DNA of 64,000 nucleotides, taken from the NCBI GenBank assembly GCA_000004985.1, contig GG738873.1. One strand, given 5' to 3'. Positions 37,978 through 53,805 of this stretch are shown here, in pieces (the stretch's first letter is position 1; each line of letters opens with the position of its first letter). The position numbers and the translations under genes are program-made. A model generated the notes under the pieces. The model was given only the letters and a program-made list of their open reading frames with translations, was not told the DNA's origin and did not search any database. The stretch comes from Naegleria gruberi. Taxonomy: Eukaryota.

Positions 37978-40900
37978 TCATCTTCTCCTTCTTCTTAATT
38001 GGTCAAAAACTGAATTATTCAAAATATCCTGTGCTTGAGGTCTGATGGCACTGTCCTTTTCCAACATTGATAAAGTCAAGTCAATGATATATTGAGAATA
38101 TTGACCAGGCTCTTCCATTTTCTTCTTTAATAATTGTGAAACTTCCTTTTGATCCTTAGTGACATAGAGTTGACTAATTGATGTAAAAGTGTCCTTAGTT
38201 ATTATTTGATAAATAGTTACACCTAAACTGTAAATATCAGTGTTATAGAAATACTTGCCACCATATCCCAATTCTTTAAAAAACAATTTAAAATTAATGT
38301 CAGTTATCTCTTAATTACTTACCAGGTGACATGAATAGAGGAGTGCCAGCATATGAATTATTGGTAGAACCTTGATTTGCTTTGGCCAATCCAAAATCTG
38401 CAATAACTATTTCAATATTATCCTTATCTAAACTCTTTACAAAAATATTGGATGGTTTGATATCTCTGTGGATGAGTTTCATTGAGCTGTGAATATAATC
38501 AAGAGCGCTACACATTTGGAAAATGATTTGCAATAATATCTGTTCTGAACATGTAGAATCATCTTTGGTCAATTGAACCAAATCTCCCAATTCATAAAAG
38601 TCCATATCAATACACAACAATTGATCCTTACTAATAAAAAAGTCATTAACCTTAAGAATATTTGAATGGTGAATATTCATCAATTGAGTTCCTTCCTTCA
38701 TAAAATTATTCAACTCCTCTGTTGATGTGTATTTGATTACTTTGATTGCCTTCATGGTGTTTGTTTTGGAATCAAAAGCTTTGAATACTGAACCAAAGGC
38801 ACCTTGACCAATTTTAACCAAGTCCATATATCTTGAGAGTGGATTGAAGGATTGACTGCTACCTCCAGTAGATGAGATACTAGTGAGAGGAGTCAAAAAC
38901 ATACTGGCATCTGATGGGAAATCACTTGATTGACCAAGCTCAATATTTTGAATAGTTTGAAGTTCGTACGCTTTTTGAGATTTTAATTTCCAAACACAAA
39001 CTGAAAATACCACTACAATAATAGCTATGATAATTATTGCAATCAACACAACTGGAATTGTAACACCAAGGATGATACCAAGAGTTTGATCATCAATGGA
39101 TCTGGGAATTGAGTTAGAAACATTAGGTGCATAATAATAAGCAAGTTCTTGAACTGTGAATAGAGATAAGTGATTAGTGACACATTCCAAATTGAAATAG
39201 AGTTTACCTTCCTCTCTTTTGACAATTGTCATTGATTGAGTCAAAATACCAGAATTAGACCAAGTTTGTTTCACTGAATCATAGTAACTGCATGAAATGT
39301 TAGTATCTGTCTTGTCATTTGTAAACAAATTATTGAACTTGATTGAAATTGGTTTTGTAAGGCCACTGACAGGTACTTGAGCTCCACTTTCTTGACTATA
39401 AATGGATAATTCAAAAATTGGTCTATTTTCAAGAATGTTATTTAGTGTGGTATCCTTCTTGATCAATGAAGAGCTGTAGAATAATTTGACATTGTTTGGA
39501 ATACTTAATTGAGAAGTAAAATCGGATGGGAAACTGGCCGAAACTTGAATAGTATCTTCAATCATTATAGAAATTTCCTTTCCATTCAATTGAGTTTCCA
39601 AATCCAGACTTTCAAGTGAATAAGTCCCCAATGTATTATTCGTAGTCAACCCACTCAACAATAAATATTTAACTTGATATCCTACAATGAGTGATTGTTT
39701 CTCTAATTTTGAGGAAAATCTCTTAATCAAAATAGATTGTAAATTTGATAGCTCAGTATAGTGAGTTTCGTCCAATAGAGTTAATCTTAATGCAGAAGTA
39801 TAGTACTGCTTGGATTTGTCCATTCCTGAATAAGTCCAATCAAGCCACTTTACAAGATTATCAGTCATGGAATTGATGGAATTTTCATCTTGTAAAGTGA
39901 GATCGAGAATTGAGAAAATATCACAAATTATTGGAAGGACCATTTGAATAAGTTTTTCATCGACTTTGGATGTCAAACTCTGTACATTATTTAGGAGTGA
40001 TAGCATTTCATTCAAATTGGAGTTTAGAGTTTGAATTTGAGAATTGGAAGTTTCGGTAAACAATCTTCCAGTGAAATTTTCAAAATTAGTTTCGTTTAAA
40101 AGGAGAATTGACATGAGGGAATTAATGGAATTGACAGTTTCAATCTTCAATGGTTCTACTCTTTTTAAAGTATAAAATTGATCATTTACATAATTCAGTT
40201 TAGACGAAATTGAGTTTGTAATCGAATTTGGAGCTTTCATTGTAATTGTTCTTGTAAGCGTTCCAATAGATCCATATCTATTGACAAGTTTTACAACGAG
40301 ATTTAAATCTGAACCATCTCTACTGAGTGGAAGTCTGGTTACAAGGTTTTTCTTTAGAGTGTTGGAAAGAATTGATATTCTTTCTCCTTGTTGAGAATGA
40401 ATTTCCATTACATAATTCGAAACTGGTTCTGAAGGTAAATTGAGACAAGAAATGGTCATGAAGCTTTCGAATGCATAATTAACAGCTTCGTTTCTTAAAT
40501 TGTAATAGGAACATGAAAATCTTGGAGTATTGTCAATTCTTGTGGAAAGTGAAATATTCGATTGACCAAACTCATTCCAAGTTGACAACTCAAATGAATA
40601 AAATTCACCATCAATCAAATATTCATTTCCAATATTCAACTCTGATGTAACAGAATTACCACCAACATTTCTAATGGTTTCTCTATTTCTCAAGAATTCG
40701 TCCACATTCTCACCCACTGCAACATTCAATCTTCCTTCCACCAATTTCCAACTTGTTGTAACACTAGAAGTAGAAGAAATAAGAGTCTTTAAAACCAATG
40801 GACGATGACTAGCATGAATAGGAGGTCTATAAGGGCTACTAAGTTTTGGAGCTTGAATGGATGAATCAGTCAACTTGATAAAACCAATGAAATTGTAAGG

Positions 40901-43900
40901 AATTGAAACGAACGAGTTGGTATAGTAAACTATTAAATTGATAGAGTACATTCCTTCAGATAAATTCAAAGATGCTGGATTAAAAGTCAACGATTGTTGA
41001 GTATTTTGACTTGTACATAAATTTGAAGAAATGGTCAACTTGGTCAAAGGATCAACTTGGAAACATGAATAAGAATAAGTGAAATAATCCTTAATAGTAA
41101 ATGTCGTAATGAATGGATCATCATTTTCAAATGTTATAGTAATGGCTCCATTTCTAATAGAATGTGTTCTATTGACTTGTGTCAAGACATGATCCAATCT
41201 GTCAAATGTTTTGTAATTGAAATAGTATGGAAGTGATAAACTTTCATATGTTTTCAAGTGTAATCCAACTACTTGTGCATTAGAATTGTATTCACTATCA
41301 ATTAGTTCATTATTATAAATGTTGACTAATCTAAACATTTGCTTTTGAAAAACTTCAGCATTTAAAAGACTGAAAAATCCAGAAAAAGTATACGAAATGG
41401 AACTATTCAATGAATTCAAGCTAGATTCTACAATACAATTATGTCCAACACATGAAAATGGAGCATCCTTAACATTATCTCCAAACCAAGTGAAAGAAGG
41501 TGGTAAACTCTTGAGATTTGGTTGAACTCTTGTAATATCTCTTGAACTAGTTGCATAATTTAACAAGTTGACTGAATCAAGTTTCAAAGTGAGTACTTTC
41601 AGATAAGAGGCATCCAATGGAATGGTATTTAACAAGGAAATTGGAATGTTGATAATTGACTTGTTGTTATATTGTAAAAGATGGGATGAAATAGTTTGAG
41701 GACAATTTTCACATGTCCACACACGTTGAACTCGTTTGAAGGAATGGTAATAGTCATCTGTGTTGGATCTAACAATCAAATCTTGACTTGGTGGGAGAGT
41801 GGTGAGTAAATCATTGATTGAGGAAACAAAACTTCTTCCTTTCATAATGTTTAAAGATTCAGTTGAGTTGACCATCAATGAAATGTTATATCTGCTATCA
41901 GAATCAAGTAAAATTATTGATCCATGTACAATTGAGTGATCATATCCGAGTAAAATCTTGAAATAAGAACTAGTCCACAAGCATTGAACAAAATCCTTCT
42001 CACCAAATCTTGACTGTTCGTCCAAATTCATAATTTGATCACATGAGAAAATACTACCTGCTTGTTTTGAAATATTGAGAATGTTACTGAATGGAGAATA
42101 GATTAAAGCATTAGGAACATCTAGAAGGACATGATGATGTTGACATTTGTTTCCAGCAAATCCTTCATTACATAAACAATTATCAATTCCAATACAGCTA
42201 CCTCTCGATGAGCAAACATTTGAATTATTGGAATAGAGACCAAAACAATTGCTGTGTTGACATTCCTCGCCTCCATATCCCGTGTTACAATTACATTGAT
42301 TTGGAGCTTGACATTTACCTCTTCCATAACATACAGAGCTAGAATTGGATAGAATTCCAAAACATGAAGTCAAGGAACAATCCTTCTCTTTCCAGCCCTG
42401 ATTACATGTGCAGTTATCATAGGAGCTACATTGACCATTACCTGAACAAATGTATGAAGTATTAGACGAAAGTACATTGTAACATTTTAAAAATTCACAT
42501 CTACTACCACCCCATTCTTTTGGACATTTACAATCACCAGGTCCATCACATGTTCCGTTGTTTTGACAAACACTAACTCCAACAGATTGACCAGCACAAG
42601 TAAAATCATCACAAAAAGCACCAAAATAACCTATTGAACATGTACAGTTATTGTAAAAGTTACAGACACCGTGTCCAGAACATACACCTGGAGATGTTTT
42701 CACAATTCCATTACAATTATATAATTCGCACTCATTGCCATAGTATCCAAATGGACAGGAACAATTATTGTAAGCTGTACATTGACCTCTTCCAGAACAA
42801 ACTGAAGAGTTGGAAACTGCCATACCAAAACATGTGAAATTCATGCATGCACTTCCAAAATATCCCTCCACACATGAACAATTGTTTGGTTTAATGCAAC
42901 TTCCATGAGAGGAACAAACAGATGGGTTGGTATTTCTAATTCCAAAACAATCAAACTGTTCACAATTAGTGCCATTGTAAAGAGCTGTGCAGTTACAATA
43001 GTTTGGAGATTGACATGTTCCTCCACCTGAGCAAACATTTGTGGCCTGGTAATTGACTCCATAACAATCAAATTCTTCACAATTAGCTCCATAATAATTT
43101 GTATTGTAACATGTACATTCCAAGCTTGTACTGTTAAAGTATTTCTGGCTACTTCCACAAGATTGGAAAGACATGAGTCGAATAACATTATTTCCAGTAT
43201 CTGCAATGTAGATTTCACCAGAATTTCCTAATGCTAATCCTTCAGGATCACTGAATTGAGTATTGAGAGCAGCCATGAAATCTGGAGAGCTTCCTTTAGA
43301 TCCTGTTCCTGCAAGAGTTGAAATCTTACCATTAGTAACCTTTCTAATTCTCTGATTTTCCTTATCAATGAAAATCAAGTCACCTGTCGAGGTCACTTCT
43401 ATGGCGCCAGGCTTGTTTAACGAAGCTGACAAGGCACTTCCTCCATCTCCTGAAAAACCAGCAATACCATTACCTGCCACTGTTGAAATAATTCCACTTT
43501 GTAAATCAATTTTACGAATTACATGATTGATATTCTCAGTAAAATACAGAGCTCCAGAATATAATGCTATTCCATCAGGACCATTTAATTTGGCATTGAC
43601 TGCCAAATTTCCATCTCCTGAATATCCTGCACTCCCTGTTCCAGCAATAATATAAACATCCAAACCATCAATTTTAAGAATCATATTGTGTAAATAATCT
43701 GTCAAGTAAATAATGACTTTGTTGGGGTCATTAATCATGACGAAATGATTACTAGTGAAACTAGCTAGGTTATAGGTTGTTGGTGATGAAATTGGACCTC
43801 CTGTACAAGAACCTGCAATAAGAGAAACTGTGTATCCAGAATCCACTCTCTTCACAGCACAATTATTCTCCAGAAAGAATATTTTAGAATCGACCTGTCG

Positions 43901-45298
43901 TTGTAAGCCATAGTTTGGAGTGGTAATAACAGGACCAGTGGTACTAGTTGCACTGGATGAAGTTGTTTGACCAATGATACCTGCAAGATTGGTAATTATT
44001 TTGGAGGAGAGATCAATACTTCTCACTGCATAACTATTGGAATCAGCAAGTGTCAACACTCCATTCAAATAATAAACACTTGTTGGTTTTGAAAGGAAGG
44101 CAGAAAGAGCAGGTATTCCACTACCAAATTGTTGACTACTTGTACCTGCTATAGTTGAAATGGTGGATGCTTGTCCATCAGACACTGTTGCCTTTCTTAT
44201 TCTATTATTTCCCAGGTCAGCAATGTAAATATTTCCATCGCCATACACAACATTTGATGGATTTGAAATGCAATTTGTGGCAGCCGACCCATCATTAAAA
44301 CCTGGTTGTAAATTAACACCCACAAACTCAGTAATGAGATAGGGACTTTGAATAATGTTTTTTCTCCTGATTGTGTGACCAAGTGAATTGCAAATATACA
44401 TGTATCCACTTGCAATAGTCAACCCTTGAGGTCTTATTAAATCGCTATTACCAACGACTTCAGATACAGTATTGGAAGACAGTTTACAAACTCGATCATT
44501 ATTAGTATCAGAAAAATAGAGATTGTAATCATCACTTGAGAAGAATACTCCATACGGTGAAGCCAATTTCAAATTTAATGGTGGTTGAGTCATGTCACTT
44601 GATCCACTCATACCAGCAATACCAACTACTCTAATCACCATTGGAGTGCTATCCAATTGAGTTATTTTACGAATTATATGATTACCAGTATCTGCAAAAT
44701 AAATCTCTGTATTTGCTGGATTAATTGTAATACCACTTGGACTACTCAACTTGGTTAGAAGAGCAATTCCATCCCCAGAAACATCTGCTACTCCAGTTCC
44801 AGCAATTGTTGTAATTGTACCATTCACATAAATTTTCCTAATACGGTGATTTCCAGTATCAGTAAATACAATGTCACCATTATTCATCAAAATTATGCCT
44901 CTAGGTTGATTAATTGCAGCATTGACAGCTGGACCACCATCTCCTGAGAAACTATTTGCCACGCCATTGCCAGCAATTGTTGTGATCTTTCCAGTTGAGT
45001 CAATCTTTCTAATTCTATTGTTTGATGTATCGCAAATGTACATTGGATAAATTGTGTTAGGTGTAATTGCAATACCAGATGGTCCTTTTAATGAAGAGGC
45101 AGTTGCTGGTAGATTATCTCCAACAACATTGCCGCCACCTGCCAAAGTTGTCATGTTAAAAATTGGCACCGAACAATGACTCTCAACACATGTCAAAACA
45201 AACACAACTGCTAGCAATAGAATGAAGGGAACTACAACCAGATTGTGTACGGACACATGCCTGTCCATGCGTGTGTGAGAGCGATGTGAAAGAGGCAT
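37978..45298 (-). CDS. receptor protein kinase: signal peptide, NHL-repeat beta-propeller region, ~10 EGF-like modules, large Cys/Asn-rich stalk, TM helix, Ser/Thr-type kinase; minus-strand exons 45298..38323 and 38273..37978
   Basis: It has a signal peptide, about 14 NHL-type repeats (G.G..G.SGDGG.A..A.LN.P.GI......Y..D..N..IRKI), Cx..C.C..G..G..C EGF-like repeats, a TM segment (ILGVTIPVVLIAIIIIAIIVVVF), and GxGxxG, VAIK-like, HRDIKPSN and DFGLAK kinase motifs. A 49-nt GTAAGT..TTTAAAG intron (38274..38322) rebuilds the APE motif as GTPLFMSP|E|LGYGG. Confidence 0.85.
42130..43200 (-). repeat. tandem EGF-like (C-x-C-x-x-G-x-x-G-x-x-C) coding repeats in the receptor kinase ectodomain
   Basis: Roughly 31-aa Cys-spaced units recur (CQSPNYCNCTALYNGTNCEQFDCFG ...). 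Confidence 0.6.
43200..45150 (-). repeat. NHL-type beta-propeller repeats (coding) in the receptor kinase
   Basis: GDGG.A..A.L..P.G.A and YIADT.NN.IRKI-like units repeat. Confidence 0.55.
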
Positions 45299-46417
45299 GT
45301 TTTTTATATGATGGAAATTTCTCTCTGTCTCAGTCCTGGGAGTCTGAAAAAGTAAAAGCTGATTCTTTCAACCGACAAACAAAATCACTAGGGTGACAGG
45401 TTGTTGGAGCCGCGGTTTTGAAAGTTGGAGAATTTCAACTGCATCATCTAGACATTATTTGAATAGTAGTGGTCATAGTAGGTTATGGAATTTGATGGAA
45501 TGTACATCATGATTTGGAAATTATTATTTTGAAAAATTCAAGATTTAGATCATTATCTGATCTTTCAATAACCATCACTATATTATTTATCATTATTCTA
45601 ATAGTATTAATATTTGTGAAAATTAATATTTTAGGGGAAGCGAACATTTTCACTAAAATCATCATCACTGCTTGATAATTTGGAAAACTTTTAATCTAGC
45701 ATTGTTCAGCATGGTCCATTTTGGATAAAATTGCTTCTGCTAATTTTCCTAATCGTTTTCAGTAATTATGTTATTTAGTAATATTTAATTATTATTTTCA
45801 ACATAAAATCACATCTCAACATGTACTTCATCATCTTCAAAACTTTCTTCGATTACTACTATTTAAATTGCTTATTAACAACATATTTATTGTCAGTGTT
45901 GCACCATTTGGTGAATTTCACAACTTGATATAATATTGATGACAACCTGATTCATTCCAAGACTACACAACTAATCATCTTCAATCATCTATTGAGTATT
46001 CATGTAGTGAGAGTTGTTGATGGTGATACAATTATTTGTAAGATGAATGATGGAGTGAATGAAAGGATTGGAGTGGACACACCCGAAACGGTTATTCAGT
46101 GATGGAATTATTAAAACATTGGTTTACAAAAGGAAAATGGAGGCAATGACTAAAAGGACAACAAAGAGACTAGAGAAAATTGGAGCAGAAAAACTCATTA
46201 CAGGAGTAGGAGAGAGGGAAGTATTATGTACATTATTAGGAATACTCATTACAGGATTAGGTGTAGGAGTACTCTTTTCAGGTGTAGGAGTGAGGGAAAT
46301 GAATTTGTTACCAAAATTGAGCTGCAGCAGACAAGTCAACAACCATTGGAGCATTCATAAATCCAGAGAATGTACTAGTAGCACAATCAATATCCAAATT
46401 GATCTTAATCTTCATGG

Positions 46418-47867
46418 TTAGACCTTTCCATTTTGACTAACTGGAACAACATCGAACGACAATTCATTTTCCAAGAGAATTCCCTTAATAACAGTTGATG
46501 GTCCAAGATTTTGGGTGGCATTAGAGAGGACAATAGTACCATTGGCAAACCATGATGACATATAACCAGTGTAAGAACCTTGAATTCTTTCCAAGAGAGC
46601 ACCAGGATAAGCTGGGGTAGCAACACTCTTACGGAGTTGTTCAATGATTGGAGTGAAAATAATTGGGGCATTCTTGAGAGCAATATTGTTAGCAACTGGA
46701 GAGTTCAATGAAGCCAAAGTGATCATTACAAAATCAAGTTCTGGAACAACCAATGGTTTGGCATTGTAGCCGTAAACAGAACCTCCCTTGGTCAAGTAGA
46801 ACAAGTTATTTTTGTCATCATACATGGTTTCAAAAGCACCCAAACCAATGGTGAATGTAGCATCGTTAGCCAAGAAGGTTGGCATGATGAATTGTCTCAT
46901 GGCATCCTTTGAAATTGGAACAGGGCACGCAGTGGCATTGTTAAGAGAGCTATAGGTGAAACAAGAGAAGAATTTTAACATATCATTAGCAGTACTGTAC
47001 ATGCCACTCTTGGGCCAACAACATGGTCAAATAATCTGGATCTCTACCAACAACCATCTTGGAAAGAATATCAGAAGAGTAATCAAATCCAGTGTTAGTC
47101 ATGCCCAACTTGTCGAAAATGTTAGTCTTACAGAATTCTCTGAATGATTTACCTGTAATCAATTCAAGAACTCCACCCAAAATGGTAAAGTCAACATTAC
47201 TGTAATAACGATCACTTATGGATGGAGCCATAAATTGCAACAAGTCAACTGTGGTCTTTCTGTATTCATCAAAAGTCATACTGCAATTATATGGATCACA
47301 AGGAGAAGTTCTAGACAAACCAGCACCGTGACTCATTAATTGTCTGAAAGTAATCTTGTTAGTTGCTGTCGTAAAGTACTTGTTAGTATATTGAAAGTCT
47401 TTAACATAGTTAGTGATTGGTTCATCAATACTCTTAATAAGACCCAATTCTTGAGCAATCAAAGCAGCCATACTGGTAAAAACTTTAGTGACAGAGGCAA
47501 CTCTAAAGATGGAATCGGCAGTTGGAGTTTCAGTTTCCTTACCCTTAGTACCAACTTGACCAACACCTTGGTTCATAACAACAGTATCTCTATATTTGGC
47601 AAGAATAATTCCGGATCCATTCTTTACACCATTGTCAACCAAAATAGATTTAACCATATTATTCTTGAGTTCTGTTAAAGCAGATTGAAGAGTTGAAACA
47701 TCAATTTCTGCAGATCTTGGAAGAATGTTACATTTAGGGTTTGCATCAGATGCCTTCAATACTCTGACTTGAGACTTGAGAGATCTAGCACTTGCCTTTG
47801 GATTGACATCAGAACTTATCTTAGTGTAAGCAACGAACCAATCAAGACCTGGCATCCAGAAGTACAA
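46418..47867 (-). CDS. beta-lactamase/transpeptidase-like serine hydrolase with C-terminal lipocalin-like domain; minus-strand exons 47867..47052 and 47008..46418 (43-nt intron proposed)
   Basis: It has SxxK (FRVASVTKVF), YSN, HGAG and GMYSTANDM motifs. Overlapping ORFs 46986..47867 and 46418..47002 differ by one frame. A GTTGGT..CCCAAG intron at 47009..47051 would give ...ILSKMV|SGMYSTANDMLKF. Confidence 0.7.
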
Positions 47868-49012
47868 GTTGCCACATTTGAGAATCTAAGAACTTCATTT
47901 CCGTAACCTCCCTTAAACAATGTCAAAGAATCGATATATGCAGCTTCTTGAATATCTCTAATAATGAAAGCATTATTTGGTTGGTAATCCAAATCAAAAT
48001 TAACATAATTTCCACCCAAATTAATGTTCATAATAGTTTGACCATCTTGATAATACAAAGTGGCATTGGTTCCATCAGCATTACACAAATAGGTACCTTG
48101 GTACTTGGCTTGATCTTGAGCTGGAGGTAAAACAAATGCTGGCATGACAGAAACATATTGACTCATAAGTGTTCCAACAGCCTTAGCATAAATTTGTTCA
48201 GCAATATATGTAGCAAAGACATCTCTATTGGAAGAAATTGAAATGATTGCAAACTTGTATTCTGGAACAAAGATCATGTGAGTAGAAAATCCGAGAACGC
48301 TTCCTCTCTTAGATCTCTTCCATACGTTATACTTGCTATCGTGACTCATTTCAAAGGCAAAACCAGTTGCATTTTGAGCGTCTGGAGAAATATATTGAGG
48401 AGTGAAAAATTCACGAACAGTTTGACGAGTAAGAATACTTTCATCATTCAAGATTGAGGAGGCATAATAGGTCAAATCTTGCAATGTAGAGTAAGCATCC
48501 ATGGAACCTTCACACCAACCAGACTTTAATTCAGAATCGAATGTGATAGTGGCATTGCCAGCATAGCTAGGAGCAACATGAGTGGAAACAGTGAGGAGAT
48601 CAGAGACGAGACCAGAGTTGGACATGGAGGCACTTTTCATTACATCCTTAAGATTAGAAGAGACGGATTGACCATTAATTTTAGCAAGAGCTTGACTCAA
48701 CCAACAATAACCAAAGTCAGAATAAACTGGTACAGAGTATGGTTCATGTACAACTGAAGAATGTCCAGGAAGACCAGAAGCAGCCATTGCCTTAACAACT
48801 TCATCATTAGAAAGATTACAATCAAATAGTTTGCAAGGAGCTTGTCTTCCGAGACCACTCATGTGTGTGGACAATTGTCTCAAAGTAACAGAGGAAATTG
48901 GAAACTTGGAGAATGTACTAGTGAGAGCATCATCGAGTTTCAACTTTCCAGCATCTCTCATTCTGAACATTTGAGTAGCAACCAACAATAACGAAAATTT
49001 CGTAAAAAGCAA
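47816..49012 (-). CDS. beta-lactamase-like paralogue lacking the N-terminal ~100 aa and the catalytic Ser (LFTK in place of SVTK); pseudogene or non-catalytic paralogue
   Basis: It aligns to the neighbouring gene from the helix after SxxK through the lipocalin-like C-terminus. The frame opens only at 49030 after a TAG. There is no room for an upstream exon before the next ORF at 49037. Confidence 0.5.
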   Translation of the reverse strand: MLFTKFSLLLVATQMFRMRDAGKLKLDDALTSTFSKFPISSVTLRQLSTHMSGLGRQAPCKLFDCNLSNDEVVKAMAASGLPGHSSVVHEPYSVPVYSDFGYCWLSQALAKINGQSVSSNLKDVMKSASMSNSGLVSDLLTVSTHVAPSYAGNATITFDSELKSGWCEGSMDAYSTLQDLTYYASSILNDESILTRQTVREFFTPQYISPDAQNATGFAFEMSHDSKYNVWKRSKRGSVLGFSTHMIFVPEYKFAIISISSNRDVFATYIAEQIYAKAVGTLMSQYVSVMPAFVLPPAQDQAKYQGTYLCNADGTNATLYYQDGQTIMNINLGGNYVNFDLDYQPNNAFIIRDIQEAAYIDSLTLFKGGYGNEVLRFSNVATCTSGCQVLIGSLLTLR

Positions 49013-49036
49013 CCATGGAATTAAAATGCGATTTTT

Positions 49037-51271
49037 CTATTTTTTTTTATTTGCCAAAATTTCTTTCAATTTTTTGAATACTGATTCTCTCTCCTTTCCT
49101 TCATCTGTAAACGAAAAACCATACAACAACACATTTGAAGGTGGAATACGTGTATTTCTATTTTGAACTCCAAAATCCTCAAATTCTTTTGACTCATCAT
49201 TCCATTGGAGCACAGAGAGATGAATTCTCTCATCATAATACAATAAATATTTTCCAACCTCATAATAATCTTGGCTCATTTGAGTTTTAAATGCAACCAG
49301 TGTTTCCAATTGTAAATGTTTTAGAAATTGTTTTTTCTTATCAGGAACAAAGTAATCATGAGATGAAATTTGAATTCTACTTCTTCTAGTGGTTTCTTCA
49401 TTAATGGTGACAGAGTTATTCGAAATTGAATTTTCTGTCAACCAAAAATCCAAATTGGTTTCATTGGAAAATAAAGACTTTGTTTTTTCTATAAAATAAT
49501 CTTCATACCATTTCCAAGTTGCATCTGCAAGCATTGATTTGATTTTGTTTAATCCTTTTAATAAATCTAATTCGAAAGCTGGTGGTGTGATAATGTCAGG
49601 AACATTGTTAGGTACAACATTATTTCTAAATATTTCAATAACTCCATCCTTTCCATTCAATCCTACCCATTTAGAATTATCATAATTAAATTCACGAACT
49701 TGCAAAACAGGTTTGTCATTTTCCATTTTAATTTTAAATCCATGAAAATCAGAAATTCCTTTAAATGTATTGACATTATCTTTAAATAAGGATTTAAAAT
49801 CAAACATTCTTTCTAAAAATGATATTTCAGGAACATTTTTAGAATAAATTTCTTTCTTTTTTTCAATAAATTCAAGAGGACTATGACATGAATTATTTTG
49901 AAAATAAATTGAATGAATTGAAAAAAATTGATCTATATCAGTATGAGTATGTCCAACAATCATGGTGCCAATAATTACTTTTTTTACCCACCCCAAACTA
50001 ACTAATAAACCTGCGAATGCTACAGCGTACTTGTTTTTGAGTTCTTTTGAGCAATTGTCTGCTTGTAAATACAGAATTGATGGTAAATTTCCTTTTTCTT
50101 TTTTTAAATTATATAAATATTCATACAGAACTGTTAGTGCCAAATTGGCTCCACCTTCACAATTAGGAAGTTTTAATTTAATCTGATATTTTCTTCCATG
50201 TGAAATTAGTCCATAATTTGATATGTTTAATTTTTTAACAGCATTACTATTTTTAGTAGCATTGGCAATTACTGGATATGGTGTTGCTTGTGCACCATCA
50301 ATTATTATAGATAAATACTTGTTTGGATTAGCTATTGCTTTTTCTATTTTTTTTTTAAAAACAAATCTTTCTCCACAACATTCATTAATATGTTTGGCTC
50401 TTGCTTTTTTTGCTTTTTCTTGCTCAACTTCATTTGTTGATCTCTTTAAATTATTTAATCTAGCACACTCATCACATTTTCCTAATCTAGTATTTTTTGG
50501 TAATTTAATATTGGGAAATAAGTTTTTTGCTTGTCTTTTAAAAGTATCCAACCTATAGTAAGCACCTTCTTGTGATGAGACATATATTTCATATATTGGT
50601 TTCCAAGTATTGAAACCAGTAATGTGCATTTCATTTGCATTAGGTAATGGTTCAGCAAAGTTTTCTGCGAATACTGAAAACCAAGATTTAAAATTTGTGA
50701 GCTTTTCACTATCTTCCTTAATTGGTGAATGTTGTTCGTCAATTTTAGATAAATCAGTCTTTTTGGATTTTTTCAATTTATATGAAGAAATACCATAAAT
50801 ATTTTTGAACATTATTTCACAAACAGGTTTTCCGTTAATTGTATAGTTGTTTGAGTGTTGTGTAATATTTCCAACAAATTTCAACTTGTCTTTTTCCTTC
50901 AATCCTGCATAGAATGTTCTTTTTTCAGTTATTTCCGAAATTGTAAAATTAGTATTGCAATGCTTAACGCAACAATTTTTCAAGATACATGAGGAAATCG
51001 CATTATCATTCAATAATTGTTTTGATTTTTTTCCTAATTTTTCCTCTGGTGATCTTAATCTTCGTTTTGTTGATTTGTATGTACGTTTTGGTTTTGTATT
51101 AATATTGGCAATCTCTGATGAATTAGTATTATTATTAATATTTTTATCACGATTTAATTTTAAATAAAGATTAATTGGTGATTCATCCTCTAATTCCGAG
51201 TTATTAAAATCTTGATAATTATTATCATCATTGTCCTGTTGAAAGTATGAAAGTAATTCACTTGCAGACAT
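49037..51271 (-). CDS. 744-aa ORF with DDE-transposase-like motifs and Cys-rich N-terminus; candidate transposase or domesticated derivative
   Basis: Motifs include SIIIDGAQATP (cf. the Harbinger/PIF first D), ~78 aa, YLQADNCSKE (cf. the DNA second-D motif), ~39 aa, then the acidic cluster GHTHTDIDQ. The N-terminus has CILKNCCVKHC...CDECARL. The ATG sits in an A-rich context and the ORF is intact. Confidence 0.45.
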   Translation of the reverse strand: MSASELLSYFQQDNDDNNYQDFNNSELEDESPINLYLKLNRDKNINNNTNSSEIANINTKPKRTYKSTKRRLRSPEEKLGKKSKQLLNDNAISSCILKNCCVKHCNTNFTISEITEKRTFYAGLKEKDKLKFVGNITQHSNNYTINGKPVCEIMFKNIYGISSYKLKKSKKTDLSKIDEQHSPIKEDSEKLTNFKSWFSVFAENFAEPLPNANEMHITGFNTWKPIYEIYVSSQEGAYYRLDTFKRQAKNLFPNIKLPKNTRLGKCDECARLNNLKRSTNEVEQEKAKKARAKHINECCGERFVFKKKIEKAIANPNKYLSIIIDGAQATPYPVIANATKNSNAVKKLNISNYGLISHGRKYQIKLKLPNCEGGANLALTVLYEYLYNLKKEKGNLPSILYLQADNCSKELKNKYAVAFAGLLVSLGWVKKVIIGTMIVGHTHTDIDQFFSIHSIYFQNNSCHSPLEFIEKKKEIYSKNVPEISFLERMFDFKSLFKDNVNTFKGISDFHGFKIKMENDKPVLQVREFNYDNSKWVGLNGKDGVIEIFRNNVVPNNVPDIITPPAFELDLLKGLNKIKSMLADATWKWYEDYFIEKTKSLFSNETNLDFWLTENSISNNSVTINEETTRRSRIQISSHDYFVPDKKKQFLKHLQLETLVAFKTQMSQDYYEVGKYLLYYDERIHLSVLQWNDESKEFEDFGVQNRNTRIPPSNVLLYGFSFTDEGKERESVFKKLKEILANKKK

Positions 51272-51510
51272 TTTTTTTGGAAATATTTTTGACTAATTAA
51301 GAAAATTAAAATACAAGAAAATCACAATAATTGATTTATTCTCTTAAAGTATATAATTTAAAACCAAAAACAATTGGACAATTATTTGGTAAATATTTTC
51401 AGCCGAAAAGCAATGCAATTTTTGTGAAAAATGATTCATCATTAAATTCCGAATACAATTTAATTTTCAAAGATGTTTATTTAATAAGGCATTAAAATTG
51501 ACTAAAAAAA

Positions 51511-53501
51511 ATGTCTTCAAGTGAATCATCACAATCAACAAGTAACGAAATACAAGAAAATGTTGTTGGTGATAATATTTCATCATCAAAATCCAACAAT
51601 AATTTACCATCGTCCACTAGTACTTCTGAATCAACAATTGATGTTCATGAATCGACACCCGATTCATCTAAAATTCCGGAGCAAACAACTAACAAGCAAA
51701 ATTCAGAAGATGAGAACTCCTTTGAAACCTATTACAAATTAGGGGACCCTGTAAATATTAAGGGAAAACCAACTGATCTCTTTAAAAGCATTACTATCAA
51801 GAATACTGGAAACCAACTAATCAGTGAATCTGTTGTACGATTTAAAAAATCCAACATTTCATCATTATTTTACATTTTAGGAATTAAAAAATTAAAAAAG
51901 TCATTTAAGGTGTGTGGAATTTTAGAAACGGATTTCAGTAAAACCACTGATCTTGATCACGAGTGGTTGGAATTGGTTGACGAGAATGATAAGAGTGTAA
52001 AAACATTTAAAACAAGAATTATTAAATTAAATGAACAACCAACCAAAAAAAATTCCAAAAGCAATTCTGTTGATACCTCCTCCAAGAATGAAGGTAGAAA
52101 ATATGAAACAAGATCATCTAAAAAGAAAAAAACAGAAGAAGAAGAACATGTACTTGAACAAGAACAACAATCTAATTCCGAATCTGAAGAAGAAGAACCA
52201 CCTCCAAGAGTAGCCAGAAAAAAATCAACTAGAAAATCAAGTAAAAAATCTGAATCAGAAGAAGAAGAAAAAGAGGTTTCTCCAAGAGTAGCCAAAAAAA
52301 AACAACAACAAGAAAATCAACAGGTAAAGTAGGAAGGCCAAAAAAGTCCGAGACTGTTTCAGTGGATGATGATGACATTTTATTTTCAGATATTTTGTCC
52401 AATAATTCTAAACCTAATTTAAATTCAAATACTATTAGTAACAGCTCAGTCAAATCAGTCACCAAACCAACCAAATTAAAAAATAATTCCAATAATTATG
52501 ATGATAATTCAAATAATAATTTAAATAATACTTTAATCAAATATGATGAAAATTTAAATACAAATCCAAATACTAATAATAGAAATATTTTCAGTAACAA
52601 CAAATTTAATAATAATAATAACAATAATTTAAATTATAATAATACTAATAATATCAAAAATTATGGTAATAATAATTATAATAATTATGATAATGTTATT
52701 GACTTAAATAACTCACATAATTCAAATAATTTTATTTTTAATTCAAATACTAATACGGAACAAAATTGTTACAACAGAAACAATTTCAATTCAATTAATA
52801 ATAATTTTAACAATAATTACAATCCCAATAATTATGAAAATGTATCAATTTACAATTCAAACAATAGAAATAATTTTTTGAATTATAATAATAATTTTGA
52901 CAATCATCATTTAAGCAATGATAATTCTAATAATTATTCAAATAATTTCAGTGCAAATAAATACAATAATATGAATAGTCATAATAATTATAATAATTGG
53001 AATACCAATGACAATATTTCAAATAATTATTTAAATAATAATAGAAATAATTTATGGAACAATTTCAATTCTAATAACAACTATCATCCAAATGCTAATA
53101 ACAATTTTACTAATTATCCAAATAATAATACTAACAATTTTAATAATTATCCAAATAATAACAATTTTAATAATTATGCAAATAATAATAATTTAAATAA
53201 TTATGCAAATAATAATTATAATAATTGTAACAACAATACAAACAATGGTCCTATTAACCTCCATAACAACACGATGATGAGTGTGTTGCATCATGTCAAT
53301 AATATGATCGACAATGAAATGGATTTCGAATTAAAAATGATGATTAACAAATTAATGGATAAATTAAACCAAACAGAGGAAAAAAACACTTTATTGAAAT
53401 TAATTGGTTCAACCAGGAATTTACATTATAGAACCCCAGGTAATTCCGAGAAAAACTCAAAATTGAAAGAATTACTATTCAAACTTCTTAATGATGAATA
53501 A
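51511..53501 (+). CDS. low-complexity nuclear-type protein: Ser/Lys/Glu-rich N-half plus Asn-rich (prion-like) C-half; two ORFs joined near 52294..52362
   Basis: ORF 52362.. starts at GTG and has no in-frame ATG, while its frame is open back to 52254. An internal repeat (PPRVARKKSTRKSSKKSE versus SPRVAKKK/TTTRKSTGKVGRPKKSE) indicates that the second frame is coding from the A9 run at 52294-52302. Confidence 0.7.
52440..53270 (+). repeat. Asn-codon (AAT/AAC) rich low-complexity coding tract (N/Y/F-rich prion-like domain)
   Basis: The tract runs from NNSNNYDDNSNNNLNN through to NYANNNYNNCNNNTNN. Confidence 0.7.
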
Positions 53502-53805
53502 TTAATTTTTTTAATAAAAAATTTCGTAAAAATGTGATTTTTTGCCTGACGATTTTTACCAAATTTTTGTTCAATTTGGTCAAATCACCAATACGAACCT
53601 TAGTGGTTGCATCACCATTTCCAGAGAACAAACTTGATATGTTTCCACCTGGAAACATAATACTACTAGCAGCAAAACCCGATGACACTGTAAAGGCAGC
53701 ATCTTGGATAGCTTGAGCATCGCTTGGAGAAAACTTTGCTTCTAAGAAGGTAGAGCAGAAAAGCAAGCAGCTTAGAAAAATTACTACAATTGTTTGTTTG
53801 AGCAT
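53488..53805 (-). CDS. small secreted protein (105 aa) with N-terminal signal peptide
   Basis: An ATG follows an A7 run. The N-terminus MLKQTIVVIFLSCLLFCSTFLEA looks like a signal peptide. The 3' end overlaps the neighbouring gene's last codons, so the true C-terminus may be spliced. Confidence 0.4.
   Translation of the reverse strand: MLKQTIVVIFLSCLLFCSTFLEAKFSPSDAQAIQDAAFTVSSGFAASSIMFPGGNISSLFSGNGDATTKVRIGDLTKLNKNLVKIVRQKITFLRNFLLKKLIIHH

Follow-up and report, generated by a model that had tools for sequence, protein, structure and literature searches.

A probable autonomous Sola1 transposon inserted in a secreted beta-lactamase-family paralogue of Naegleria gruberi

The Sola superfamily of DNA transposons, with a Sola1 group that includes Sola1-1_AP of the pea aphid, was reportedly described by Bao, Jurka, Kapitonov & Jurka in 2009. 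Harbinger transposons leave 3-bp (TWA) target duplications. Sola elements encode transposases with an Asp-Asp-Asp (DDD) triad, generate 4-bp duplications, are mostly 2-9 kb in size and have inverted repeats from 11 bp (PMC10741241), and supplementary material to Majorek et al. 2014 (PMC3985635) gives core sequences for Sola1-1_AP, for a second Sola1 protein of the aphid, and for Sola2-1_HM and Sola3-1_HM. Kolobok, with TTAA-specific 4-bp duplications and 5'-RR termini, has been reported in Naegleria and is the one superfamily named for this genus in the literature we searched (PMC9587614); the same literature yielded neither a heterolobosean Sola host nor a link between Sola and Naegleria. Here we analyse a 64,000-nucleotide stretch (the window) of contig GG738873.1 (GenBank assembly GCA_000004985.1), five of whose open reading frames (ORFs) are exact annotated proteins of Naegleria gruberi NEG-M (461,873-bp scaffold). 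We consider it highly probable that a 4,582-bp autonomous cut-and-paste Sola1 transposon has inserted here into the coding sequence of a secreted paralogue of the beta-lactamase family, PF00144 (Table 1).

A preliminary description of this DNA had pointed to an intact ORF of 744 amino acids with transposase-like catalytic motifs and N-terminal Cys clusters, ending 24 nucleotides from an N-terminally truncated beta-lactamase-like ORF, and had suggested that a mobile element with an Asp-Asp-Glu (DDE)-type transposase disrupted one copy of the hydrolase gene. Both ORFs, the gap between them and the disruption itself were borne out. The two ORFs share a reading frame and are separated by a single TAG; the simplest explanation of this is coincidence, the chance being one in three.

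The extent of the element became clear on a wider scale. An inverted-repeat search limited to 48500-52000 returned no repeats flanking the transposase ORF, because the element extends further. The two-gene layout of a related element in N. lovaniensis, described below, suggested that a divergent gene of 273 amino acids (ORF2) belongs to the element, and the search for ends was widened on that basis. Inverted repeats and target-site duplications, which the preliminary description had proposed to seek around 49000-51500, are present, and the element that they delimit (48990-53571) is much larger than the span first given (49037-51271). Its ends are the sole inverted pair in the search space that matches at 17/19 positions or better, and a 4-bp direct repeat flanks this pair: the ATTG copies on either side agree at 4/4 positions and form a perfect target-site duplication.

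Among 60 Markov shuffles, a 17/19 inverted pair appeared in 7 (~12%), and a pair accompanied by a 4-bp duplication in none (0/60). In the 64-kb window the repeat motif is confined to the two ends and one subterminal copy, against a chance expectation of 0.07, and no further copy of the element was found there. Base composition sets the element apart as well, since its GC (guanine plus cytosine) content is 25.7% vs 38-39% in both flanking hydrolase fragments, and no other 4.58-kb stretch of the window is as AT-rich. The subterminal copy of the motif (53514-53532, two mismatches) is inverted and lies 20 nucleotides inside the ORF2-side end, so that this end could fold as a hairpin or offer a second putative transposase-binding site.

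Directly outside the inverted repeat, at 48989, begins the host-gene sequence of the 3' fragment. When the element and one ATTG were removed in silico, 53805-53572 came into frame with 48985-47816 and gave an uninterrupted ORF of 467 amino acids. The insertion thus divides the host gene into a 5' piece of 78 codons (53805-53572), which begins at the ORF start (53805) with the signal peptide MLKQTIVVIFLSCLLFCSTFLEA..., and a 3' piece of 389 codons (from 48985); both are still open. At the junction the restored protein reads ...RIGDLTKL/LVATQMFRMRDAGKL..., and the predicted sequence of the empty site is ...GACCAAATTGTTGGTTGC....

Homology to other hydrolases runs across this junction. Residues 65-329 of the restored protein match PF00144 (profile positions 45-308, 64.8 bits, E 1e-17), a match that spans the junction at residue 78, whereas the 3' fragment alone is matched from profile position 60 of 329 with 52 bits, in agreement with the truncation first noted. 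In tblastn, RIGDLTKLLVATQ... pairs with RVASVTKVFTSMA... of the neighbouring copy across the same junction. The profile match and this pairing indicate that the 5' end of the hydrolase gene, earlier taken to be missing or replaced, was neither lost nor replaced; it lies 4.6 kb away, intact, on the far side of a simple insertion. The preliminary description had also allowed for a distant spliced 5' exon: a 5' coding part does lie at a distance, and what separates it is a transposon, not a demonstrated intron.

The point of insertion is one codon past the Lys of the motif equivalent to SxxK. The restored protein has DLTK at this motif, so that Asp stands where the nucleophilic Ser would be, vs SVTK in the neighbouring copy. 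The Asp makes it unlikely that the interrupted copy was an active serine hydrolase, and even before the insertion it may have been a non-enzyme or in decay. The DLTK position lies 4.6 kb upstream of an LFTK that had been taken for the same motif with Leu at the catalytic Ser. The letters LFTK do occur in the translation, but their codons (ttg ctt ttt acg aaa) are the minus-strand translation of the inverted repeat at 48990-49008, which reads LFTKFS, and therefore belong to the transposon end. A chance in-frame stop and an inverted repeat that reads LFTK together produced the illusion of a transposase ORF replacing the 5' end of the hydrolase.

Table 1 Features of the transposon, the interrupted gene and the neighbouring hydrolase copy.
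Feature	Position	Strand	Evidence or detail
Complete Sola1-type DNA transposon, 4,582 bp	48990..53571	- (oriented by transposase gene)	inverted pair and 4-bp flanking repeat
Terminal inverted repeat, transposase side: AACGAAAATTTCGTAAAAA	48990..49008	+	inverted-repeat search
Terminal inverted repeat, ORF2 side: AACAAAAATTTGGTAAAAA (reverse complement)	53553..53571	-	17/19 vs other end
Target-site duplication copy ATTG (minus strand)	48986..48989	-	
Target-site duplication copy ATTG (minus strand)	53572..53575	-	
Transposase ORF, ATG-initiated, intact, 744 amino acids	49037-51271	-	N-terminal Cys-rich region, CxxC...H block, DDD core
ORF2, 273 amino acids, Lys/Glu/Ser-rich	51511..52332	+	exact match to XP_002676208 'predicted protein'
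ORF3, Asn-rich, 379 codons, no ATG	52362..53501	+	open frame inside element
Interrupted gene, 5' fragment: ATG, signal peptide, N-terminus, end ...KVRIGDLTKL	53572..53805	-	PF00144 extension on joining
Interrupted gene, 3' fragment, start (L)LVATQMFRMRDAGKL...	47816..48989	-	PF00144, tblastn
Beta-lactamase-family open frame, 398 codons	47816-49012	-	Pfam PF00144
Tandem beta-lactamase-family copy, SVTK and YSN	46124..47800 (about)	-	tblastn, translation

Within the transposase, the motifs IIIDGAQ, LQADNC and GHTHTDID follow N-terminal Cys clusters. An alignment of 14 family members has 25 invariant columns, and every one is present in the window transposase. The invariant residues include C101, C105, C151, C266, C269 and H294, which likely form metal-binding DNA-binding modules, as well as D325, D405 and D445/D447, which fall within IIIDG..., LQxDNCxKExKN and GHTHxDxDQ, respectively. 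An AlphaFold model (mean predicted local distance difference test score (pLDDT) 72.5; >80 through residues 300-560) shows an RNase H-like order of strands and helices with D325, D405 and D445/D447 at the canonical places. On this prediction, the transposase is built around a DDD triad on an RNase H-like fold.

The sole Pfam family of the 744-amino-acid protein is DUF7869 (3.9e-43, residues 341-529). The Pfam families suggested for it at the outset, Harbinger (DDE_Tnp_4), KDZ and Plavaka, gave no match at E up to 0.1, nor did Plant_tran, and an NCBIfam scan and a search of PDB sequences with the family profile returned nothing meaningful. DUF7869 itself is mentioned in no paper of the literature searched. 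In Pfam scans of the reference cores, Sola1-1_AP matched DUF7869 only (E 1.1e-5, 25.5 bits), as did the core of the aphid Sola1 protein XP_003249065 (E 1.9e-5, 24.8 bits), and the cores of Sola2-1_HM and Sola3-1_HM did not match DUF7869. Both Sola1 fragments score just below the Pfam cut-off because they end halfway through the DUF7869 profile.

Aligned by hhalign, the family profile and Sola1-1_AP gave an E of 7.6e-4 with G.N, DNCxxxN[KR]N and GHT in register, and direct reading shows that the D-x8-P spacing of the first catalytic block is common to both. Given these DUF7869 matches and this register, we file the element under Sola1, an assignment by sequence comparison with reference core fragments and not with full-length Repbase Sola1 sequences. 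The earlier description of the protein as Harbinger-like gives way to a Sola1-type DUF7869 protein: DDE_Tnp_4 is not matched, and the duplications are 4 bp instead of 3 bp. The exact 744-amino-acid protein is absent from a collection of 15 billion proteins and from the N. gruberi protein set searched, so the transposase gene appears to be unannotated in this species.

A full HMMER scan of representative proteins (E up to 1e-3) returned 3,115 of them, the best at 35% identity; among the 150 matches listed, none exceeded 39%. The best match is an N. lovaniensis protein of 775 amino acids found at two loci (PYSW02000012.1 and PYSW02000075.1; XP_044541740 / XP_044551790) and alignable with the N. 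gruberi transposase over 93% of its length. The two loci have in common a block of exactly 3,782 bp at 100% identity, with 27/28-bp inverted repeats starting AACATAAATTT and, outside them, 4-bp direct repeats, CTAT at one locus and TTGA at the other. Two divergent genes make up its content, a Lys/Glu-rich ORF of 344 amino acids and the 775-amino-acid transposase. The two copies share none of their flanking genes, and no other gene of the window has a homologue in their flanks. What the two loci carry is a bona fide DNA transposon that moved recently.

Like the N. gruberi element, this sister element combines a divergent two-gene layout with 4-bp duplications and AAC..AAATTT termini. All four termini of the two elements have AAC..AAATTT in common, and 9 of the first 11 bases are invariant (N. 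lovaniensis, AACATAAATTT; N. gruberi, AACAAAAATTT / AACGAAAATTT); at the ORF2-side terminus of the N. gruberi element, a single base of the 11 differs from AACATAAATTT. By alignment, only these first 11 bases are common; blastn of the whole N. lovaniensis element against the window found no DNA similarity and the N. lovaniensis repeat was not found in the window at up to three mismatches. The two elements also differ in that their transposases share only 35% protein identity and in that the Asn-rich ORF3 makes the N. gruberi element longer by 800 bp.

The second-closest homologue (P0001, 34% identity) is encoded on a eukaryotic metagenome contig, L001 (ENA ERZ27315067 k141_310422), next to genes for a PPR-DYW deaminase and an EF-hand protein, with a divergent upstream ORF that is cut by the contig end. 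An AAC..AAATTT terminus was not found on this contig; the far end of the element lies off it. DUF7869 comprises >3,000 clusters at 50% identity. Its proteins are patchily distributed, occurring in Naegleria, the amoebozoan Thecamoeba (as many transcript isoforms), a nemertean and many metagenome contigs, and also in lancelets, where some are labelled 'ATP binding'.

The accessory part of the N. gruberi element is probably a single gene. ORF2 (frame 0) and ORF3 (frame 2) meet and overlap at an A9 run (52294-52302), where a homopolymer slip would have shifted the frame. A 39-nucleotide GT...AG 'intron' joining the two was considered and rejected, as it leads into the wrong frame and the A9 slip fits better. 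An AT-hook-like GRPKK (within GKVGRPKK) is encoded at 52323-52346 in the frame of ORF3, just upstream of its listed start. The 344-amino-acid ORF of the N. lovaniensis element has the position and orientation of ORF2, and neither this ORF nor ORF2 or ORF3 has a Pfam match. Compared by Smith-Waterman, the accessory ORFs of the N. gruberi, N. lovaniensis and L001 elements did not score above shuffles, with one weak exception, N. gruberi against L001 (13/500 shuffles), and their homology was rejected as evidence. Kept in position and not in sequence, the divergent accessory ORF might be a required partner in transposition.

Between the two divergent genes of the N. gruberi element, the contexts of the start codons (51256-51278 and 51504-51526) form a 23-nucleotide inverted repeat, AAAAAAAATGTCT[G/T]CAAGTGAAT, that matches at 22/23 positions, with the result that the transposase and ORF2 both begin MS[A/S]SE. 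A weaker dyad of 35 nucleotides extends this repeat, and the 73-nucleotide intergenic region of the N. lovaniensis element is likewise partly palindromic. The dyad may be a symmetric bidirectional promoter or a site for a regulator.

We infer the biochemical steps of transposition, the recency of the insertion and any current activity from these features. By analogy with DDE/DDD transposases, the 744-amino-acid protein would use its Cys-rich N-terminal domains to recognise the inverted termini AAC[A/G]AAAATTT..., and its RNase H-like DDD core (D325, D405, D445/447) would excise the element. The excised element would then be joined to a target whose two strands are cut 4 bp apart, and repair of the stagger would leave the ATTG duplication. 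The intact transposase ORF, the perfect duplication and the open host fragments suggest that the insertion is young, and the element is possibly still active in N. gruberi.

Several observations weigh against this interpretation or parts of it. The inverted repeats are imperfect (17/19) as well as short, and by themselves are not significant in the space searched, with ~12% of shuffles yielding such a pair. The restored host gene, with Asp and not Ser at the nucleophile, may represent a copy that was already a non-enzyme or decaying. When the sources of the 20 best HMMER matches were looked up, none proved to be a further annotated protein of N. gruberi. Between the N. gruberi and N. lovaniensis accessory ORFs, Smith-Waterman comparisons show no similarity above shuffles. 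As for the family, the link to Sola1 draws on two incomplete reference fragments with scores of 25.5 and 24.8 bits vs a Pfam cut-off of 26 bits, and the hhalign probability against Sola1-1_AP is only 25%.

Among the alternatives, the one to be taken most seriously is that the element, though real, is dead in N. gruberi, a single-copy relic whose ORF is open only through the youth of the insertion. We regard this as a genuine possibility, short of an even one. The apparent split of ORF2 and ORF3 at the A9 run would fit a relic, as would the two mismatches between the inverted repeats and the failure to find a second copy in the window or an annotated N. gruberi paralogue among the matches looked up. 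Against it, no residue that is invariant in the family is missing from the intact 744-codon ORF, the target-site duplication is perfect and the host fragments remain open over 78 and 389 codons, which together argue for a recent insertion with no sign of transposase decay; the sister element of N. lovaniensis, moreover, exists in identical copies.

A second alternative accepts the element and makes it a very large intron, so that the hydrolase would still be expressed. Candidate sites can be read from the sequence, a GT in the ORF2-side repeat (TTG/GTAAAA, 53559/53558) and the AG of the TAG at 49037; their use would preserve the frame with no stop between them and would add 20 amino acids to the protein. 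An in-frame outcome has a one-in-three chance, however, the added residues would land in the active-site helix when the Ser nucleophile is already absent from this copy, and the Joint Genome Institute (JGI) gene model does not use these sites. We judge this explanation very unlikely.

Little can be said for a domesticated transposase, a host gene brought close to the hydrolase by an old rearrangement, although the preliminary description had entertained domestication and the ORF is intact, conserved and, in the annotated proteome, apparently single-copy. A host gene whose frame is restored lies exactly at the inverted repeats and duplication that bracket the element, the composition is foreign, the N. 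lovaniensis relatives sit at unrelated, non-syntenic loci whose flanks hold no homologue of a window gene, and the gene is missing from the N. gruberi protein set, all of which make this highly improbable. Least credible of all is that repeats and duplication coincide by chance in AT-rich DNA and that the hydrolase pieces were parted by another rearrangement or an assembly error: the frequency of 17/19 pairs in shuffles would allow for it, but the pair falls to the base on the break in hydrolase homology together with a 4/4 flanking repeat (0/60 shuffles), removal of the element restores the reading frame, and the ends and duplication length agree with those of the independently delimited N. 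lovaniensis element.

The second hydrolase copy, downstream of the interrupted one, had been described as a full-length tandem paralogue with intact motifs. Our reading of it differs: its frame switches three times, near 47030, 46430 and 46310, and it lacks its own ATG and signal peptide. The switch near 47030 lies inside a conserved ...GMYSTANDM... block, where the two frames overlap too briefly for it to be an intron. The copy ends (46124-46312, minus strand) in a Thr/Pro/Ser-rich stretch and a hydrophobic tail, ...SAPIFSSLFVVLLVIASIFLL, directly before the stop. This tail resembles a glycosylphosphatidylinositol (GPI)-anchor or membrane-anchor signal, and it is reached only after a further frame switch.

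The public model of 628 amino acids (P0168; 46124-49012) has its first residues, MRDAGKL, within the 3' fragment of the interrupted gene, enters the downstream copy through a predicted intron and bypasses the first frameshift by another. Both predicted introns skip real coding sequence, and the model is a chimera of two decayed hydrolase copies, pieced together so as to bypass a transposon and a frameshift. Elsewhere in the window, an ORF of 2,327 amino acids (38315-45298, minus strand) has, by the look of its translation, the character of a giant receptor-kinase-like gene, with apparent NHL-like repeats, many Cys repeats like those of epidermal growth factor (EGF), a transmembrane segment and an apparent C-terminal protein-kinase domain that is cut at the ORF end.

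In biological terms the case is a textbook example of an insertion that disrupts a gene, and its wider interest lies only in an element that looks both young and complete. For annotation, XP_002676208 can be recognised as a transposon gene, and DUF7869 becomes readable as the core of a Sola1 transposase. The identical sister copies in N. lovaniensis mean that an active DNA transposon may exist in Naegleria. Taken with the intact transposase, perfect duplication and open host fragments in N. gruberi, they raise the tentative and on balance rather unlikely prospect that the genus harbours a still-active autonomous two-gene Sola1 lineage. If so, Naegleria, for which to our knowledge there are few genetic tools, would have an endogenous cut-and-paste system that could become one, and DUF7869, with its >3,000 representative proteins, would gain an explicit identity as a transposase.

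Set beside described systems, the N. gruberi element resembles PIF/Harbinger in being an inverted-repeat transposon with an RNase H-fold transposase, and differs from it in the 4-bp duplications of the Naegleria elements (vs 3 bp, TWA) and in the absence of a DDE_Tnp_4/Plant_tran match. With Kolobok it shares 4-bp duplications and presence in Naegleria; we rejected this superfamily because the duplications are ATTG, CTAT and TTGA instead of TTAA and the Pfam family is a different one. With Sola1 it agrees in the DDD triad, 4-bp duplications, short inverted repeats and a size within 2-9 kb (PMC10741241). Sola1-1_AP and the Naegleria proteins have their D-x8-P, DNCxxxN[KR]N and GHT blocks in register and the same and only Pfam match, while overall sequence similarity between the aphid Sola1 references and the Naegleria transposase is only distant. 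The second, divergently transcribed ORF that the Naegleria elements carry may be a further difference from Sola1.

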